A DNA stretch of 62,532 nucleotides, counting the filler, from Globobulimina sp. (Eukaryota): NCBI GenBank assembly GCA_003354225.1. It is 35 parts of 35 records of this genome, joined end to end, with 100 filler letters (N's around TTAATTAATTAA, not from the genome) between each part and the next. Parts side by side here need not be neighbours in the genome. Positions count along the whole stretch, not along the records: positions 53,693 to 55,380 come from PIVH01013096.1; 34 more parts are not named here. The stretch is one strand, 5' to 3'. The notes under the pieces are model-generated. The model saw only the letters and a list, made by a program, of their open reading frames with translations, was not told the DNA's origin and searched no databases. The first letter of the stretch is position 1, and every line of letters begins with the position of its first letter. The position numbers and the translations under genes are program-made. This document shows positions 3,583-57,168 of this stretch, one piece after another.

Positions 3583-5073
3583 ATAATATCGATATCCTCT
3601 AGCTCTTCTATAGCTATTTCCATTTCTTCCTCTCCCCCTTCCTCTTCCTCTTCCTCTTAATCCTCTTCCCCTTCCTCTAAATCTGTGATTATTTGAATAT
3701 CGATGATAATTATTTCCATTATAATTATTGCCATAATAATCGAGAGACTCATTTCTTTGATATCGATGTTGATGCATATTATAATTATTATAATTATTGC
3801 AATTATTTGCCTCCAATTCATGTCTTCGATATTTAATTAATTTAACAATATGATGATGATTGTTTTCTGCAGCAATTCGTTGCGCAGTTTTATTGAATTC
3901 GTCTCTTAATAGCAATTGCTTCAAATCATATTTATTTATTAATATGGTACAGCAATCAGCATAGTTCTTAATAGCGCAAATATGTAAAGGTGTTTGTTTC
4001 CACACATTTTGCGCCGCATAATCCAAACCATTATTTATTAATAAATTTAAAATTTGCGTATTCCCAGAAATGCAACAACAATGAATTGGACTCCATTGAT
4101 TATCATATTTCATATTATCATTAAAATTATCAATGGATGCGGATTGTAACATTATTTTTATAGTTTCAATATTTGATCGCATGCAAGCTATCTCCATTGG
4201 CGTTTCTTTTGTTGTTTTCTTTTTGAAAATGTCTGCTCCATTTTGGATCAATAAATTTACAATCTCATAATGATTATGTATGGATGCTTCAAATAAGCTG
4301 GTACTGCCTCTTCGATCTCGCGAATCACAATAAACGCCGGCAAGTAATAATTCATTCACATATCGCGTATCACCGTCACTGCAACAAATATGAAGCGCAG
4401 TCTGTCCAAACTCATTTGTTGCCAAATCAATCACATATTGGATGCCTATCGCAATGTCATTATTTTTAAATGTTGCAAACAAATTATTTAAACCGCCATA
4501 TTTCAATGGATATGTTGATAAATCCAATATGTTCATATTTGCTCCATAATATTTGTGCATTAAGTATAAAAATATTAATCTGGCAATCGATAAGCCATCA
4601 AAATGAATATCTGTGAAACTTTCTTCTTTATATTTATACAATTTCTCTAAAGTGATATTTTGTGGCGCATAAAAACTTAATTCAATCACTTTTAAACCAT
4701 TTTTATCCAATTTATCAATGATTGAAAATGTTGATGATAATGTTTGAATTAATGCCGCTATTTTAGTCGCTGATGATAATGGATCGTTATTTTGGATCCC
4801 TGAAATATTGACATATTCATTAAGATCATTATCCATTTCATTCCTTTCTTTTTTTAATTGTTTTTCAACAGAATGTAATACATTAAATATTGAATCCACA
4901 TTAAACAACAAATGCTTTAATCTTTTATCAAATATATTGGAGCCGCCCAAAAATAAATGTTTTAAATGTTTGAAGTGAGTAAGAAATGTCAATGGAATGG
5001 TATATAATATGCTATTTATAATACCCAATGTTTGTAGATTTGAAAAACGTTTTACGAATACGGCGCAATGCAT
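3583..5073 (-). CDS. LRR-like N-terminus plus ankyrin repeats plus RG-rich tail (partial; upstream part appears disrupted)
   Basis: Ankyrin motifs GQTALHIC, GSTSLFEAS, ETPMEIAC, WSPIHCCC, QTPLHICA; C-terminal RGRGRG. Confidence 0.8.
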
Positions 5074-5373
5074 TTCTTTAAACGACTGTCTGTCTAAAAA
5101 TAAACTGTTTAAATTACTAAATGCGGCCTTCTTATTATTAATAATAATATCGGTTTATTCCGGTAATTTGGAACATTTCGCTAACGCTAATTTTGAGCAT
5201 TTAAGTTGATCTAAATTGCTTAACCAATTTAAATTATTTGTAATGTGTCGACATTCTCGTAAATAAATAATTTNNNNNNNNNNNNNNNNNNNNNNNNNNN
5301 NNNNNNNNNNNNNNNNNTTAATTAATTAANNNNNNNNNNNNNNNNNNNNNNNNNNNNNNNNNNNNNNNNNNNN

Positions 5374-16115: not shown

Positions 16116-17776
16116 ACCACCCATGCTTTAATATTAATAATCCGCTCTATGCGGCCAAATTCAATGAATTATATGCCACAGAGAGCATAAATACGGCCCA
16201 TATCGACATACCAGTTAATATGATAAGTTTCGACGTTGTATCTCCATTCGATGCGAAGCTGACTGCCGTAGCTGACGGTGGCTCCAATATCCAATGCATA
16301 AACTTTAAGACGGGCCTAAAATATAAGAAATATGTATTAAGGGATAAAAGAAAAACAAGGGTACGTACCGGTAGCGGCTATACCACAGTCCACGAATACA
16401 TACCATTTAAAATCAAGTGCGCCAATCGAGTGATAAATACCAAATTTTATATTCTCAACCAACTGCCCGATGATATCAATTATCTCATTGGCCGCTCATT
16501 AATCCACGCATTGGGATACAAATTGACGAAAACCAATACGTCATTTGAGCATAAATCGCACCCTGAATACTACGACGATGAATTTGATGACATGTCGTGT
16601 GAGCTATACCCGTTGGCGACCGACGCAGCACAAATCCACAACTTTGATATTATTATTCATGACGATGCAGCGCGCAAACCTATACTCGATCTGATCCATT
16701 CGTACGCGGACAATATCTCGAAAGGTGGCAGTGGCGCGGACATCGGAAGGATCTCAGGCGAAAAATTCAAAATCATACTGCGCGATGACATAAATGTGGA
16801 CCCAATCGTAAATCCGACGTATTATATAAGCCCGAAATACTATGATAACTTAAAAAAACAGATACAAAACCTATTGGACGATAAACGCATTGAGCCGAGC
16901 TGCAGTCATTGGCGTTCGAGCTTGTTTGGACGCCCTAAGAAGACCGGCGATGTCCGGATCGTATTCGACTTCCGGCGCTTGAATCACTTAACGAAGCCCG
17001 ATCAATTTCCCATACCTAACATACAGAAATTATTACAAAGGTTTAGAGGGAAAAGATACATAACTTCGTTGGATATGAAGGCCGGTTATTGGCATATCCC
17101 ATTGGATGATGACACCAAACCTCTGACTGCATTCGAGTTCGACGGCCAGTTATATCAATGGACCGTAATGCCGATGGGCCTGAAAAATGCGCCAGCTACG
17201 TTTCAGAGAGTGATGACGAAAATATTTGCGGATTTAGACTTTGTGGTGGTGTATATCGACGATATCGCCATTTTGAGCGATAATCTGCCGGAGCACCTAA
17301 AGCATATTCAAACGGTTTTTGAACGCATCAAAAAGCATAATATAAAGCTACGGATTGATAAATGTTTGTTTGCGGCGCAGGAAACTGAGTATTTGGGATA
17401 CTATGTTGACAAATATGGCTATCGCCCAACAGACAAATATAAAAAAAAGGTAATAAACGTACCTGAGCCACGTAGCAGAGCGCAAATGCAGGTCTTCCTC
17501 GGTTTGGTTGCATATTTACACAAATTTATACCTGATTTGCACCAAATTGCGAAGCCATTGTATAAATTATTAGAGACCAACGAGGCATTTGAGATGACGA
17601 CAGTGCGTAGGAAGGCTTTTGAAACATTAAAATTAATGATTCAAAAGGCCGACATATTAATTCATCCGGACCCGAATCGCGAATTACATCTATTTTGTGA
17701 TGCGTCCATTAATGGCATTGGTGGCGTGGTGGGTCAGTACGACGATGACAAAGTATTCCATCCCATCGCGTTTAAT
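16116..17776 (+). mobile_element. Ty3/Gypsy LTR retrotransposon pol (protease-RT-RNase H start)
   Basis: VADGGS protease; RIVFDFRRLN, LDMKAGYWHI, MPMGLKNAPATFQ, YIDD; LFCDAS RNase H; open frame. Confidence 0.93.
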
Positions 17777-18048
17777 ATGATAAGTTTCGACATTGTATCT
17801 CCATTNNNNNNNNNNNNNNNNNNNNNNNNNNNNNNNNNNNNNNNNNNNNTTAATTAATTAANNNNNNNNNNNNNNNNNNNNNNNNNNNNNNNNNNNNNNN
17901 NNNNNTACAGTTTTTTACAGATTATTCAAAATAAAAACATTGAAAGTCAAAATTGAATTGTTAAAGGTTGTGTTTCATCGGGAACCATTAACATTTTATT
18001 ATTAACCTATTTTCCTTCCAAAACTTTACTATTCATTATTTTAGGACA

Positions 18049-30949: not shown

Positions 30950-32125
30950 ATGGCGCGTAGCGAAAAGCTAGAAAACATTGTTGTTTCGCGATCTGTACTA
31001 AAATGTGATGAATGCAATCGAATATGCCATCACGATCGCAAATATTCCATATTGTCCGATGTTGATGATTCACGTTCTCTGCTATTTAAGCGGAATGAAA
31101 ATAATAAGTGTTTCATGTGTTATCATTCCGAACAACATCATTCCAGATTAATCAATCCAAAAATTATTAAACAATTATTTATTGATTCGAAAGAAAATGC
31201 AAATACAAAGGATATATGCCAACGCATCAAATATTTAGGAGGTAAAAAACATCACAAGCAAATAGTTAATGTGTTATCGGATCAATCAGAAGCACCATAT
31301 ATTTGGATGAATATATTATGGAAAAGTGCAATGTACACAAGTACGCAACAAAAAATGTATTTCCTTAAAATGTTAGAAAACGAATTTGAACCTGATTATA
31401 CAATGCAAAATAACAAAGGTTTGACAGTGATCCACATTTTGTGTCTGGATGACAATATAATTGACGCTGAAACATCTCAATTATTGCTGCTATATTTCAG
31501 AGAAGAAAGCAAATATATTAAAAAAGATATATTCCGATCTGTGTGTCTTTCAAAACGAACGCCATTGCATTATGCAGTGGAATCTGGGAAAATAGAAAGT
31601 ATTAAAATATTAATTGCTTTATACGATAACAAAACTCTGCTATTGAAAGATAATAAAAAACAGACTGTAATGGATATTGCACGACAGCAGAAACATACCA
31701 ATATCATCGAATATTTGCAACAGTATAAACTTGATGGTTATGATGAGAAAAAAGAGGATTTATATCATGAGAAACAAGAATGGGAAATGTGTTTATTGCA
31801 TGCAATTAATTCATTGTTGCAAAAGAAAGAGTATACATCGCAACAATTGAATGAAATATGTAAACAAATGGCGCCGGATAAAATAATAAATCCTCATAAG
31901 TCAATATTTCAAACTGGTAACTATGATGCAAATGTTTTGATGATGGCATTAAATAAAATTAATATTGATGTTCAATGGTTTGATGCAAGAAAAGTTAATG
32001 AATTGGATTTAAGAAATCAGGCATTTTTACAACCTGATAATAAATGCAAATTTATTGGATTTATCTTGAATAATCCACAAAAGACAATGTTTTTTATTAA
32101 TCGTCGACATTGGTTAACAATAAAA
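30950..32125 (+). CDS. Ankyrin-repeat plus Josephin (JOSD-like) deubiquitinase, 3' partial
   Basis: GLTVIHIL, RTPLHYAV, QTVMDIA; YHEKQ..CLLHAINSLLQ, NPHKS..GNYDANV, RRHWLTIK. Confidence 0.88.
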
Positions 32126-32225: not shown

Positions 32226-33497
32226 GTTTATAAATCCATTGTGATAAAAAAAACCTTAAACCCAAGTTTCAAATCTTTCCAAATCGAATCGCAGAAACTC
32301 TGTAACTGTGATCCATTCCGCCCCATAATACTAACTGTTTATGACTGGGACAAATCCAGCAACGATGATGTCATCGGTTCTGTACAAACGAACTTAAACG
32401 AACTCCGTAGCAAACCACAGGGATTAACTATTACACGTCACAAGAAAAAAAACAAAACCTATGGTCAGATTAGTGTTACTGGCTTTAGCTCGAAGTCACT
32501 TGCAAGTTTTTTAGATTACATGCAAGGCGGAGCGGAGATCTCGTTATGCGTCGCCATTGACTTTACCGGAAGTAATGGGCATCCTCGCGATGCGCAGAGT
32601 TTGCATAATATTTACAGTGAGCAACCCTCGCAGTATCAAAATGCGGTTCGCCAAATCGGAAACATAGTCTCCGTTTATGATTTTGATAAGAAATTCCCAG
32701 TGTGGGGCTTTGGGGCGTTTATGAACGGCCGGGTGCACCATGATTTTGCTCTGAATTGGAATGATAATAACCCGGAGGTACAGGGGATATTTGGTATTGA
32801 GGAGATATATTTGAATGGGATACGGAGTGACAAGTTTCAGCTCAGTGGACCGACGTTGTTTGAGCCTATTTTGAAGAAAGCAAAGGCTTTGGCACAGATT
32901 GCGCATAAAAATGACGGTTTAAACTATTTGATTTTGTTGATTTTGAGCGATGGGATTATTAATGATATGCGGCAGACAAAGAATGAAATTGTAGAGATGT
33001 CGAATGCGAATCTACCAATCAGTATTATTATCATTGGATTGGGGAATGCGGATTTTCGTGGAATGAAAGAGTTGGACGGGGATGAACAGGGTTTGATGGA
33101 TAGTAAGGGACAGTATGCAAAGCGGGATATTGTGCAATTTGTGCAGATGAATGTCTATAATGATTTAAATTCATTATCGAAGGAAACGTTGATGGAAATA
33201 CCGAAGCAATTGTTGTCGTATACGGCTGTGCATGATATTAAAGCTGGGGAGAAACCAAAAGTTGACATGAATGTTCATGAGAATTTGTTTGCGATGAATG
33301 ATGAAGAGATGAAACAAGAACAGGAACAAGAATTGGAAGTGCTTGAGTCGGATTATAATGAAGCACAGGATATGTATTCTAATGCACCGCTACCATCAGG
33401 TTGGGAGAAGGGATATGATGAAACAAGTGGGAGACCGTATTATGTCAATAATATTAATCAAACGACACAGTGGGAACATCCATCTGCTACGCAATAA
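32226..33497 (+). CDS. Copine (C2B plus vWA) with C-terminal WW domain, 5' partial
   Basis: KKTLNP, VYDWD, AIDFTGSNG, FPVWGFGA, LSGPT, SDG.I.D, RDIVQFV; LPSGWEK..GRPYYVN..TTQWEHP. Confidence 0.92.
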   Translation, partial: VYKSIVIKKTLNPSFKSFQIESQKLCNCDPFRPIILTVYDWDKSSNDDVIGSVQTNLNELRSKPQGLTITRHKKKNKTYGQISVTGFSSKSLASFLDYMQGGAEISLCVAIDFTGSNGHPRDAQSLHNIYSEQPSQYQNAVRQIGNIVSVYDFDKKFPVWGFGAFMNGRVHHDFALNWNDNNPEVQGIFGIEEIYLNGIRSDKFQLSGPTLFEPILKKAKALAQIAHKNDGLNYLILLILSDGIINDMRQTKNEIVEMSNANLPISIIIIGLGNADFRGMKELDGDEQGLMDSKGQYAKRDIVQFVQMNVYNDLNSLSKETLMEIPKQLLSYTAVHDIKAGEKPKVDMNVHENLFAMNDEEMKQEQEQELEVLESDYNEAQDMYSNAPLPSGWEKGYDETSGRPYYVNNINQTTQWEHPSATQ

Positions 33498-53692: not shown

Positions 53693-54206
53693 ATAACCTT
53701 GTGTGTGTCGAAGTGCCCCAGACTTGAATTCATCACCGAAATTCAGCAAGTTGCGTAAATAAGCCAACTGAGGATAATTGGCCATTTCATTGCCAACGGT
53801 GATGTGACCGAGGGTTAGCACGATCTTTGAAAATAATGAATCCATGAACCCTACAACAGGGGACACCTGAAACATATTTAACATGGAATCATTTGTCAAG
53901 AGAGAAATTCCAATAATATCCTACCTTCTCTTTGTCTGTATCATCCAGCTCCGTGTTATCTGCTCTGTAAACTTGCAACTGCACTTTCAAGTAGGCATTG
54001 GCCAAGTCAGTAAAAAACTCTTTAGCTTCTGGTATAGTGAATTTAATGGCCGTGTTAGCTGAGAGACTCCAATCTGAACCATACTCGAAATCTCTGGCTG
54101 CCACTATAGCGTTCTGTTCCACAGGTTTGGTGAAGAGGTCAAGTTCAGTTTTGCCTGTATTCTTGAGGGAAACTTCGGAATCGCTGGCCAACTTTGTACG
54201 CTTCAT
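53693..54206 (-). CDS. Polinton-type major capsid protein, N-terminal part; intron 53867-53924
   Basis: ELDLF..P..Q..I, IKFTI, DL..AYL.V, then after a 58-bp intron VSPV..MDSLFSKI..L..NYP.LAYL.NLLNF. Confidence 0.82.
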
Positions 54207-54208
54207 TT

Positions 54209-54490
54209 TCAGACAAATAGTTTAGGTTGAGATTTACGTGCTGCCTTAGACTTGACAAACAACCGCCTTTTGGTTTTCTTGGTTTTCTTGTTGGACCTTT
54301 TTCGCTTTCTGATTGTTTTCTTTGTTTTGTTGTTCTTTGATCGTTTTGAAGTGACCTTTTTCTTCTTCCTGCGACTTTGCTTTTTGGATGGTGGACGACG
54401 ACTTGAACTGTTGGTGCCAAGGGAATTTGTGGGGAAACGTTCAACTGCAGAAGATAATACTCCTCCAAAACCAGTCAATGCTGCTGACAT
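54209..54490 (-). CDS. Small K/R-rich putative DNA-condensing core protein
   Basis: MSAALTGFGG.. followed by a very basic tail; stop lies 2 bp before the capsid ATG; function inferred from composition and position. Confidence 0.55.
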   Translation of the reverse strand: MSAALTGFGGVLSSAVERFPTNSLGTNSSSRRPPSKKQSRRKKKKVTSKRSKNNKTKKTIRKRKRSNKKTKKTKRRLFVKSKAARKSQPKLFV

Positions 54491-54600
54491 CAGAGCAAAT
54501 ACAAGAACCGACCGTACGACACGGTTGCAAATGGTACAAATGGCGATTTTGACAAAATTTACAGATATATACAAGAAAGGCCGGCGGTGATTGGTCAATT

Positions 54601-55323
54601 TTACATAGTAGGCGTATACACTGTTTGATATTTTTCCAGAACATTTGTACGAACACGTAATTCTTTCTTGTTGGTAACAAGGTCAACCAGAACATAACCA
54701 TAAGGTTTGCGCATTTCCATGTCATAAGCAGATTGCAGAACACGTCTTAATCCTATTTGACCACCAAGAATGCCCACTTGCTGCAACATTTTTGGTGAAT
54801 TTAACAAGAAATAGTATCCAACGTTTTGGGCTATAATTCGTGCGGCAGGGGTCGGCGCAAAGATCACATGCCAAAACAACACCAGTGATACTCGATAGTG
54901 GCGGGCCACAGTGAACAGATGGGCCAGCTCTTTAGATGATGATGTCAGCATTGTAGAATCATCGATGGCAACAATCGTCTCCTCAGTACAATCACCGGCC
55001 ATACTTTTCAGTTGTTCTTCAGTCAAAACTGATGATTGAATAAACTCAACATCAATGCCTTTCTCGGCCAGCTTTTTCTTTGTGACAATATAGCTGTCTT
55101 GGTAACAATTGTATAGGAAAAATAGTCGCTTTGGTGGTGGATTGTAAACATGGTCAGCTTCATGGAGTGTCTTGAGAAACAGACTGGTCTTTCCCGACTG
55201 AAAGTATGAATTGAAAAGACTACTAGAACTAGGGAAAACTGTCACCTGTGTTGTACCACAAAACAATATATTTCGACTCAATTGTAATCTACCATCAAAT
55301 TCAAATGAATGTCGTGAAGGCAT
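54601..55323 (-). CDS. A32/FtsK-like DNA packaging ATPase; intron 55198-55245
   Basis: Spliced Walker A GTTQSGKT; Walker B VAIDD; LFT..RHY..S, PYGYVLVDL, LRVRTN. Confidence 0.88.
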   Translation of the reverse strand: MPSRHSFEFDGRLQLSRNILFCGTTQVTVFPSSSSLFNSYFQSGKTSLFLKTLHEADHVYNPPPKRLFFLYNCYQDSYIVTKKKLAEKGIDVEFIQSSVLTEEQLKSMAGDCTEETIVAIDDSTMLTSSSKELAHLFTVARHYRVSLVLFWHVIFAPTPAARIIAQNVGYYFLLNSPKMLQQVGILGGQIGLRRVLQSAYDMEMRKPYGYVLVDLVTNKKELRVRTNVLEKYQTVYTPTM

Positions 55324-55480
55324 GATGACCAACCGTTCGATAACACACAAGAAAGAAAGAATGATTTTATACTGATTTAANNNNNNNNNNNNNNNNNNNN
55401 NNNNNNNNNNNNNNNNNNNNNNNNTTAATTAATTAANNNNNNNNNNNNNNNNNNNNNNNNNNNNNNNNNNNNNNNNNNNN

Positions 55481-57168
55481 GATTGGACCGACGAGCTCAT
55501 GCTCAATAATTTAGAAAAATGGTTTGACCATAAACCCGGAACAGTTAATTCACATTTTATTTGTATATAATTGCTATAAATAGAATATACAATTTTGTTT
55601 TGTAGAAAATTGGTTTAAATGATTATAATTTTGATGTTGGCAACGTCAACGAAGACACATTTGAGCAGCAAATGAATAATGTGCGATGCAGAGAATCCGA
55701 AGGCGAGCGGCATGGCGTTGACCATAATTGCATTGCATGTAAACCGTGGCTGTTATCTGAATTCGAAGAAGAATATGAAACAAATGCGCATAACAAATAC
55801 GTTGTAAATAATAAGAAGAGTTGGTTGTGTTCGTTATGTCAAAAGTCCATACCCATTGATATTAAAACATGTATTTGTATATCGTATGAGAATAAAAAAA
55901 GAAACAAAAACAAGCACAAATTAGAAAACGGACACAAAAACAAAGATTGCTTGATTGTAATAAAAGAATTAGCGGAAACCCTGCATTCAACGATATCTTT
56001 TAACGAAATCCCGCAGGAATTCAAAACCAGTTCAAAACCATTCGAATATGAAATATGTTTTAATGGCGAAATCATAGCCAATGGCCATGGAAACAGTAAA
56101 CGCAAAGCACAGCGAAATGGGGCCCAAATAGCATTGGATTATTTATCCAAACAACGAGGCTGCGAAAGAAAAATCAATTTGCTGCAACGATTCGGCCGTA
56201 TTGGACATTCTGAAATCGATAGGAATTCGTACGTTGAAATCTGTAGAGATATTTCAGATGAAACAAATATTTATTCAGTGCTACCTGCACCGTATTCGAT
56301 AGCTAGTAGTAATCATGAAAATATATTTGAATATGTAACAATAAACGAATCGCCTGAAATTGTCGCGTATAAAACAAGAGTTTGTGAGATATCGCAGTTA
56401 GACGAGCCGTCAGTTTTAGGCTGTTTGGACGTTTGCGGCCCTCTTAAATTCTCATTGGTTGCTAGCATATTTCATATATCTGTGAATAACGGACGGTAAG
56501 GATACAAGTACTAGAAAAAGAATAAAAAAAATAATAAAAAAAAAAAGAAGAGAAAAAAAAGAAAGAGGAATAATAATAAATTAAGCGAAGATAAAGCGAT
56601 AAATACGAATATAAATCCGGATACAACGCATGTACGAAATAAACAGGCGATTGACAGGAATGAAAATATGTATTGTCATCCGTCCAAATATGAATATCAT
56701 GAGATTTACTGTGATGGAGACAGTCCGCAGTTACATAAACATAGCAAACGAAGGAGGAAAAAAAGAGAGAAGGAAAAAGAAAAAAAAAAGAATAATAAAT
56801 TAGCTGCGAATGTTGATGGTGTTTATATCTGTGATGAATGCGGCAAATATTATGCAGATGGTTTGAACGGTAAATGTTTATCGAAGAAATGGTTTTGTTT
56901 TGGTTGCAATAGAAAAATTAATGAAAAAAATCATAATAATCATTTAAATTCCTTTATCGAATCGGCTTTTTATACACAAAGAAAAAACAAAGATCAAATA
57001 AATCAGCCAACGCCACCTATGACTCCGCCAAGTTCTGACGATGACAATAACCCAAAACACAAAGAAATAGATGACATTCCATTGTATGGTCCGACTCCAT
57101 ATACACCGCCACCGCCACCGCCACCGCCTCCATCGATATCAATTAAAATGGAAAACATTAATAATGAA
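55481..57168 (+). CDS. dsRBD-containing protein with Cys motifs (partial; intron 55544-55605; in-frame stops at 56497-56514 unresolved)
   Basis: F...ICFNG..IANGHGNSKRKAQRNGAQIALDYL fits a dsRBD; the downstream ORF is in the same frame. Confidence 0.6.

Follow-up and report, generated by a model that had tools for sequence, protein, structure and literature searches.

Predicted spliceosomal introns in the packaging ATPase and capsid genes of a Polinton/Maverick-type virion gene module

We analysed a 62,532-base stretch of a Globobulimina sp. assembly (GCA_003354225.1), hereafter the window, and focused on one of its contigs (PIVH01013096.1; positions 53693-55380), which probably represents a virion-morphogenesis fragment of a Polinton/Maverick-type double-stranded DNA element of a eukaryote, its ATPase and capsid genes each carrying one phase-0 GT-AG intron. 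The window consists of 35 unlinked contigs of 1688-1691 bp each, placed in descending order of length with N...TTAATTAATTAA...N linkers between them; being neighbours in it means nothing, and sequence outside 53693-55380 has no physical link to the viral contig. The latter (1688 bp, GC content 0.408) holds three co-oriented minus-strand genes, namely an ATPase gene, a small basic open reading frame (ORF) and a capsid-like gene, with intergenic gaps of 113 nt and 5 nt. Taking these as an ATPase-core-capsid module of the Polinton/Maverick type, we hold with considerable confidence that spliceosomal introns are the best explanation for both interruptions. A more far-reaching reading, in which the contig belongs to a polintovirus clade with old, position-conserved core-gene introns under purifying selection, with spliceosome-dependent virion production and missed by intron-blind ORF calling, is offered tentatively, as a possibility slightly more apt to fail than to hold. 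The features of the contig are as follows.

53693-55380, minus strand: probable Polinton/Maverick-type morphogenesis module fragment (ATPase, basic protein and 5' part of the capsid gene) making up the entire contig; from linker boundaries and gene content
55365-55371, minus strand: TATAAAA motif 48 nt upstream of the ATPase ATG, a promoter-like candidate; from sequence and motif position
55246-55323, minus strand: predicted ATPase exon 1, 26 codons, ending ...FCGTTQ, the first half of Walker A; from sequence and homologue alignments
55198-55245, minus strand: putative ATPase intron, 48 nt, phase 0, in frame and stop-free; from GT..AG enumeration and the gap in homologues
54601-55197, minus strand: predicted ATPase exon 2, SGKT... 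to the stop, with Walker B IVAIDD; from homologues, a Pox_A32 score below the cut-off and synonymous-dominated variation
54566-54594, minus strand: CCAAT (54590-54594) and TATATA (54566-54571), 104 and 81 nt upstream of the basic ORF, promoter-like candidates
54209-54490, minus strand: predicted 93-aa basic protein, ORF 54490-54212 with stop 54211-54209; from composition, codon changes and position
53925-54206, minus strand: predicted capsid exon 1, 94 codons; aligned to residues 1-95 of homologue P0018 (E = 2e-17), its profile giving 94 proteins
53867-53924, minus strand: putative capsid intron, 58 nt, phase 0, GC content 0.29; from GT..AG enumeration and homologue alignments
53693-53866, minus strand: predicted capsid exon 2, 58 codons, open to the contig end; aligned to P0018 residues 96-153 (E = 1e-9)

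Interruptions of the ATPase and capsid genes

The ATPase gene extends from an ATG at 55323 to a stop at 54603-54601, and its unspliced frame is open throughout, reading ...FCGTTQ-VTVFPSSSSLFNSYFQ-SGKTSLF, where the middle part is encoded by the 48-nt segment 55245..55198, running from GTGACA to TTTCAG (in full GTGACA...ACTTTCAG). The GxxxxGK[ST] motif is absent from the unspliced protein; when all GT..AG pairs 20-300 nt apart in the gene were enumerated, this single pair among 476 gave an open frame and restored Walker A (GTTQSGKT). Seven homologues of the ATPase share 50-83% identity with it. Walker A is contiguous both in P0006 (265 aa, 50% identical; GATNSGKT) and in the more distant ATPase of L002 (25% identity, E = 2e-15; GSTQTGKT), a metagenomic Polinton described below, and in both alignments a 16-residue gap lies exactly opposite the 48-nt segment. 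In an AlphaFold model of P0006, with a predicted local distance difference test score (pLDDT) of ~85 in the core, the P-loop lies between a strand at residues 59-62 and a helix at residues 69-78, so that the 16 extra residues would fall inside the nucleotide-binding loop.

The model of P0006 was compared with PDB representatives, among which it matched VirB4 (Z 14.8), the genome-packaging NTPase B204 of Sulfolobus turreted icosahedral virus 2 (STIV2; Z 14.5, root-mean-square deviation 3.1, 177 residues aligned), HerA and FtsK. Matches in BFVD comprised adenovirus IVa2, A32-like packaging ATPases of giant viruses, the mavirus FtsK-HerA ATPase, the FtsK-like protein of a Drosophila-associated adintovirus and the Sputnik V3 ATPase. 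Furthermore, P0006 exceeds the cut-off of the Pfam family Pox_A32 (25.2 versus 22.8 bits) in a match that runs through the P-loop, and the Atlas clusters nearest to the ATPase are Pox_A32. With fold and family thus tested on a relative, the contig protein is predicted to be an A32-like packaging ATPase of the FtsK/HerA type. The ATPase profile gave no match to PDB sequences, and the ATPase alignment recovered no related loci from viral, metagenome and genome contig collections.

The capsid-like gene begins with an ATG at 54206, 5 nt past the stop of the basic ORF, and is open on the minus strand to the contig end at 53693 once its 58-nt segment is removed. This segment, 53924..53867, runs from GTAGGA to TTTCAG (full form GTAGGA...TGTTTCAG) and shifts the frame, such that read-through stops 11 codons after ...DDTDKEK, while the second frame runs to the contig end. 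Because a stop-free capsid frame is obtained from 29 of the 296 GT..AG pairs, openness alone is not decisive, and it is homology that decides: 53924..53867 is the only pair making the two exons collinear and abutting on P0018, an uninterrupted protein of 440 aa, with no residue lost or duplicated. Frameshifting or read-through was considered for this gene and rejected, as it would add ~19 unconserved residues that occur in none of the uninterrupted homologues.

The two segments share several properties. Both have GT...AG termini and a pyrimidine-rich 3' end, as in U2-type introns; both are poorer in GC (0.35 for the ATPase and 0.29 for the capsid segment) than the larger exons (0.42-0.44); and TTTCAG occurs twice on the gene strand of the viral contig, in each case at the 3' end of one of the segments. 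Their removal restores uninterrupted, homology-supported reading frames, as expected of spliceosomal introns, and no further stop or frameshift was seen across the 1688 bp. Comparison with uninterrupted homologues supports the view that both interruptions behave as GT-AG introns. The original prediction, made from the DNA alone, had delimited the contig and the two segments (55198-55245 and 53867-53924) at exactly these positions and had recognized the three co-oriented minus-strand genes; its further claims, that excision of the 48 bp restores GTTQSGKT, that excision of the 58 bp fuses the capsid ORFs and that the contig carries no other lesions, were borne out by the pair enumeration, by the gaps in two intact homologues, by the abutting alignments to P0018 and by the absence of further stops or frameshifts.

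Family assignment, conservation and alternative origins

A profile of capsid exon 1 built with two close homologues matched 94 proteins in a library of 1.84 billion proteins, including full-length members of 417-458 aa; a profile built from the full-length members was in turn matched by 93 of the 96 capsid-family proteins, the other three being repeat proteins such as a HYR-domain protein. An MKR... N-terminus is common to the contig capsid, P0018, P0020 and P0022. The structure model of P0018 (pLDDT 85.6, predicted template-modelling (TM) score 0.84) is a double jelly roll, and its top PDB matches are all double-jelly-roll capsid proteins (PBCV-1 Vp54, from Paramecium bursaria chlorella virus 1, and those of Singapore grouper iridovirus (SGIV), Emiliania huxleyi virus 201 (EhV-201), mavirus and Sputnik), with E ~1e-16 and TM-scores of 0.5-0.64. 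The best BFVD match of the model is a protein of Cotesia sesamiae Mombasa bracovirus (R9XLG5; 23% identity, E = 2.1e-25), a distant relative with a TM-score of only 0.36-0.40, which we take to be linked to a Maverick insertion; giant-virus capsids, adomavirus LO7, and adintovirus and MELD-virus proteins follow. From this fold comparison, the third gene is predicted to encode the N-terminus (the first 152 residues) of a double-jelly-roll major capsid protein (MCP) of the Polinton/Maverick family.

Other searches with the capsid sequences were largely negative. PDB sequence matches to the capsid profile were limited to three adenovirus hexons and were not significant (E = 0.06-0.4); Pfam gave no match for the contig capsid exons or for full-length capsid-family proteins, PHROGs none for any of the four contig protein pieces, and the Atlas no usable match for capsid exon 1. 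Likewise, the 'longer' word search with exon 1 returned no match, and viral contigs searched with the exon-1 alignment or P0018 yielded no related loci. In genome contigs, capsid exon 1 gave one weak tblastn match, at L014 10001-10183 on a Fusobacterium chromosome (61 residues at 33% identity; E = 9e-6, calculated among candidates only), which was discarded as spurious and probably due to chance.

Scanning Joint Genome Institute (JGI) metagenomes with the exon-1 alignment identified 13 loci. The most informative, L002 (12.5 kb), carries a protein-primed type B polymerase (pPolB; PF03175, E = 2.9e-18), an A32-like ATPase, an integrase with rve and chromodomain (E = 5.3e-11) and a 441-aa capsid gene, all co-oriented, and is a textbook Polinton/Maverick; neither an adenain-like protease nor a penton was identified in it by Pfam. 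Since L002 combines the same capsid family with pPolB and an rve integrase, the capsid family of the contig can be assigned to Polintons/Mavericks, and the 39% identity between the contig capsid and that of L002 over exon-1 residues 19-87 places the contig lineage as a predicted distant branch of this family. An A32-like ATPase and a Polinton-type capsid had both been proposed in the original prediction, and they agree with the Pox_A32 score and packaging-ATPase fold of P0006, on the one hand, and with the fold of the P0018 model and the gene content of L002, on the other. Each of the 13 JGI capsid genes is either uninterrupted or evidently decayed, and the intron occurs in none of them. Within this set, L002 (1-12541), L003 and L004 are near-identical Polintons of 7-12.5 kb from three JGI metagenome records, and the Maverick capsid genes of L006, L012 and L013 are decayed, diverging early and interrupted by in-frame stops, unlike the clean exon/intron structure of the contig.

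Capsid similarity ends right after a K|V junction, the V corresponding to the donor GTN, in the contig and in P0008, P0009, P0011, P0012 and P0013, which are 84, 64, 46, 45 and 41% identical, respectively, to the exon-1 reading frame of the contig; all of these frames end 8-29 residues past the junction. Seven further relatives (P0015, P0017, P0018, P0020, P0022, P0026 and P0028) read straight through it. The capsid intron therefore seems to be common to the closest relatives. Among the Logan contigs of sequencing runs X1-X3, no joined (intron-less) form was found, X2 and X3 giving no aligned contigs; one Logan contig of 394 nt extends ~330 nt past the left end of the viral contig. Run X1, the only one with the contig (depth ~5.7), also contains a second lineage, represented by short contigs with 80-84% identity at 54429-54546 and 54641-54801. 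The ATPase codons of the contig and these divergent copies differ by 12 synonymous and 5 conservative non-synonymous changes, the five replacements being the residues of homologue P0001, a pattern that points to purifying selection between co-occurring lineages and not to decay. Because the capsid intron seems shared and purifying selection appears to act on the genes, the introns are more suggestive of features kept by a living lineage than of damage to a dead copy.

Several observations weigh against this interpretation. The branch points are not clear-cut, with yUnAy-like TTCAT and TTGAC located by eye 11 and 27 nt before the 3' ends; none of the runs matching the contig sequence is an RNA run, so that splicing is deduced from DNA; most of the capsid intron is poorly covered by Logan contigs; and run X1 may be the contig's own source and hence not an independent confirmation. 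The sharing of the capsid intron is read from truncated ORF calls of the relatives and not from their DNA, and P0010 and P0014 are ambiguous at the junction. Across the family, similarity is lost at profile positions 80-99 (the junction being at ~88/89) in 15 of 43 proteins with an unaligned tail of at least 8 residues, a count that is biased by the query itself and that decay would resemble. At the family level, the contig ATPase stays below the Pox_A32 (PF04665) cut-off of 22.8 bits, both unspliced (17.9 bits) and as exon 2 alone (18.4 bits), and the capsid fold is taken from P0018, a relative with 36% (exon 1) and 29% (exon 2) identity. Finally, three genes fill the 1688-bp contig, and any pPolB, integrase, protease, penton, terminal inverted repeat or host flank would lie beyond its ends.

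Among the alternative origins, the one that survives best, although unlikely, is that the element comes from a co-sampled nematode or other animal rather than from the organism of the other contigs. The Atlas cluster nearest to the ATPase is annotated as 'commonest Nematoda', although no more than 3 of its members have a known phylum, and the next ones as Arthropoda and Mollusca; in addition, TTTCAG counts among the 35 contigs peak at 4 in the viral contig, which also ranks at the GC-rich end of the window. However, the window shows no enrichment of TTTCAG (51 occurrences versus 45.9 ± 6.9 expected), YAG after pyrimidines is the general eukaryotic acceptor, and the contig, at the GC-rich extreme of a gradual range, is no clear tetranucleotide outlier among the 35. 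A neighbouring contig also seems, by eye, to hold a GT..AG intron of similar size (62 nt), no marker gene or linkage points to an animal, and passages of Widen et al. (bioRxiv 10.1101/2022.07.12.499685) describe the core genes of nematode Mavericks as intronless. Nothing in the evidence requires a co-sampled animal, and the word counts, the composition and the nematode descriptions undercut the nematode or animal source that the original prediction had read from the TTTCAG ends.

Host domestication, in which Polinton capsid and ATPase genes gained their introns as resident nuclear genes and are no longer mobile or infectious, is less probable still. It would accord with the common view of introns in virus-derived genes as a sign of long nuclear residence, with the apparent purifying selection and with the gene order ATPase-basic-MCP, which is unlike that of L002, but the three virion genes are still tightly packed, at least two lineages with ~80% identity occur in one run, and several relatives are present in other assemblies. 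Given these co-occurring lineages and the relatives elsewhere, a multi-copy or circulating element fits better than a single domesticated locus. Least credible is a dead, decaying endogenous copy whose two segments are inactivating insertions or junk with coincidental GT..AG ends: passages of PMC8097293 describe the majority of vertebrate Maverick loci as degraded, 74 of the 93 capsid-family proteins from the representative library fall short of full length and an in-frame, stop-free 48-nt segment could arise by chance alone, but the GT..AG ends are exact and share TTTCAG, removal restores homology to the residue, the 1688 bp contain no other lesion, variation among copies is dominated by synonymous changes, and five relatives spanning 41-84% identity all lose similarity at one and the same site in the capsid protein. 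Of the intact, intron-bearing endogenous virus originally predicted, the introns thus stand by homology, while 'intact' and 'endogenous' were not established, the capsid gene being cut by the contig end.

The basic protein and a proposed mode of expression

The 93-aa protein encoded between the ATPase and capsid genes contains 34 lysine and arginine residues versus 1 aspartate or glutamate (isoelectric point 12.0). Its ORF can be regarded as a real gene because the first ten codons show 5 synonymous changes and 1 non-synonymous change against the divergent copy in run X1, and its composition and position indicate that the product is probably a DNA-condensing core protein. In the JGI loci L001 and L002, a gene of 134-163 aa with a basic C-terminal tail lies directly upstream of the capsid gene, and the contig ORF may be considered its positional analogue. 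Sequence homology between them was rejected, as the identity of 25-27% falls in low-complexity sequence and is unconvincing; an adenain-like LxGx|G site at the N-terminus of the basic protein was likewise dropped, since its L is replaced by S in the divergent copy. The pre-capsid gene of L001 (405-806) and L002 (9117-9605) is conserved and had no Pfam match; its product has YCCDA...QRGHGLG...LSGLF as an N-terminal motif and a poly-lysine/arginine tail with KDIF(N/G) at the end, and may serve animal-type Mavericks as a core or cement protein.

With introns in both the ATPase and the capsid gene, the production of functional proteins would require nuclear transcription by RNA polymerase II (Pol II) and host splicing. 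We propose that the module is transcribed in the nucleus by Pol II, for which TATAAAA, CCAAT and TATATA are candidate promoter elements, and that the host spliceosome excises the 48-nt and 58-nt introns. The spliced ATPase would then pump the linear genome into capsids, the double-jelly-roll MCP would form the shell, and the basic 93-aa protein would condense or accompany the DNA in the core. Because the ATPase intron splits the P-loop, unspliced mRNA would yield a P-loop-disrupted, catalytically dead protein, and splicing could in this way act as an on/off switch for packaging activity, which would make the gene a simple test system. For the capsid gene, with its ATG 5 nt past the stop of the basic ORF, an internal promoter, reinitiation or alternative processing are the options to be considered.

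Comparison with known elements and the other contigs of the window

Introns in such core virus genes are unusual for Polinton/Maverick-type elements. Passages of Barreat & Katzourakis (2021; PMC8097293) describe eight intronless ORFs in intact vertebrate Mavericks, said there to agree with Kapitonov & Jurka (2006), and those of Widen et al. (cited above) call the core genes of nematode Mavericks 'intronless', with introns only in captured cargo genes. Genome surveys for these elements usually presume intron-free genes and rely on gene callers of the prokaryote style; passages of Bellas et al. (2023), like those of Chase et al. (2022), justify such ORF calling on the ground that endogenous viral genes 'do not contain introns', and in those of the adintovirus paper 'splic' does not occur and the only intron mentioned is a group II intron. 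The view, contained in the original prediction, that such genes are usually uninterrupted is in line with these passages. A literature search at the level of titles and abstracts found no report of short introns conserved in position within the capsid or ATPase genes of Polintons. The nearest precedent is provided by dinoflagellate eupolintoviral proviruses, which passages of Gozashti et al. (2025; PMC12166617) describe as populated by introner transposons, ~25% of them in coding regions. Intron gain by a nuclear, Pol II-transcribed element is plausible, yet it contradicts a working assumption of the field.

The contig was compared with the known systems in turn. Animal Polintons/Mavericks, represented by L002 and the vertebrate elements, share with it the capsid family, a homologous ATPase, co-oriented and tightly packed virion genes and a small basic-tailed gene directly upstream of the capsid gene; however, the capsid genes of L002 and the 13 JGI loci are uninterrupted or decayed and the vertebrate elements are intronless in the passages cited, whereas the contig has introns in both capsid and ATPase genes, and its gene order (ATPase-basic-MCP) differs from that of L002 (ATPase...integrase...MCP). 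The nematode Mavericks likewise combine an FtsK-like ATPase with a double-jelly-roll capsid and contain intron-bearing genes, but the passages on them place introns in cargo only, in contrast to the core capsid and ATPase genes of the contig. The dinoflagellate proviruses, as described in the passages above, resemble the contig in having spliceosome-type introns inside Polinton-like elements, some of them in coding regions. Their introns are copies of identifiable introner families, whereas the contig has two short introns (48 and 58 nt) that look unrelated, one of which seems to be position-conserved across diverged relatives.

Adenoviruses are expressed in the nucleus with splicing, produce spliced late transcripts and possess basic core proteins. 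The likeness of the contig to them would consist in spliced expression in the nucleus and in a gene for a basic core protein beside the capsid gene, to which the non-significant hexon matches of the capsid profile and the match of IVa2 to the ATPase model can be added. In contrast, the capsid of the contig family (~440 aa) is much smaller than hexon and has no hexon towers, the putative introns lie inside coding sequences where adenoviruses splice leaders, and no adenovirus-specific genes were seen on the contig.

Polintons/Mavericks are thought to be ancestral to several groups of eukaryotic double-stranded DNA viruses. If the proposed introns are real, part of the diversity would escape intron-blind surveys of endogenous viruses or be broken up by them; the close relatives present in protein databases are in fact nearly all truncated ORF calls. 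The contig would also document an actual instance of core virus genes gaining introns, and expression of the virion module would be tied to the nucleus and the spliceosome.

The remaining contigs of the window were surveyed for comparison. Rfam and tRNA scans of the window gave no RNA genes, and a brute-force scan of all contigs for GT..AG pairs joining ORFs, aimed at the intron style of the host, was too noisy for use. Long uninterrupted ORFs encode a C2-copine-WW protein (32226-33494, plus strand), a multi-ankyrin protein (3583-5154, minus strand) and an ankyrin and Josephin protein (30950-32125, plus strand); because other contigs carry such ORFs, the source organism looks gene-dense and intron-poor. 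A 562-aa open frame at 16118-17803 (plus strand), with RVT_1 (E = 2e-37) and reverse transcriptase-associated RNase H, is a retrotransposon pol fragment filling its whole contig. On the contig that follows the viral one in the window, a candidate 62-nt phase-0 GT..AG intron (GTTAAT...TTTTGTAG) was noted by eye at 55544-55605 (plus strand), where its removal would join the ORFs at 55433-55543 and 55606-56499.

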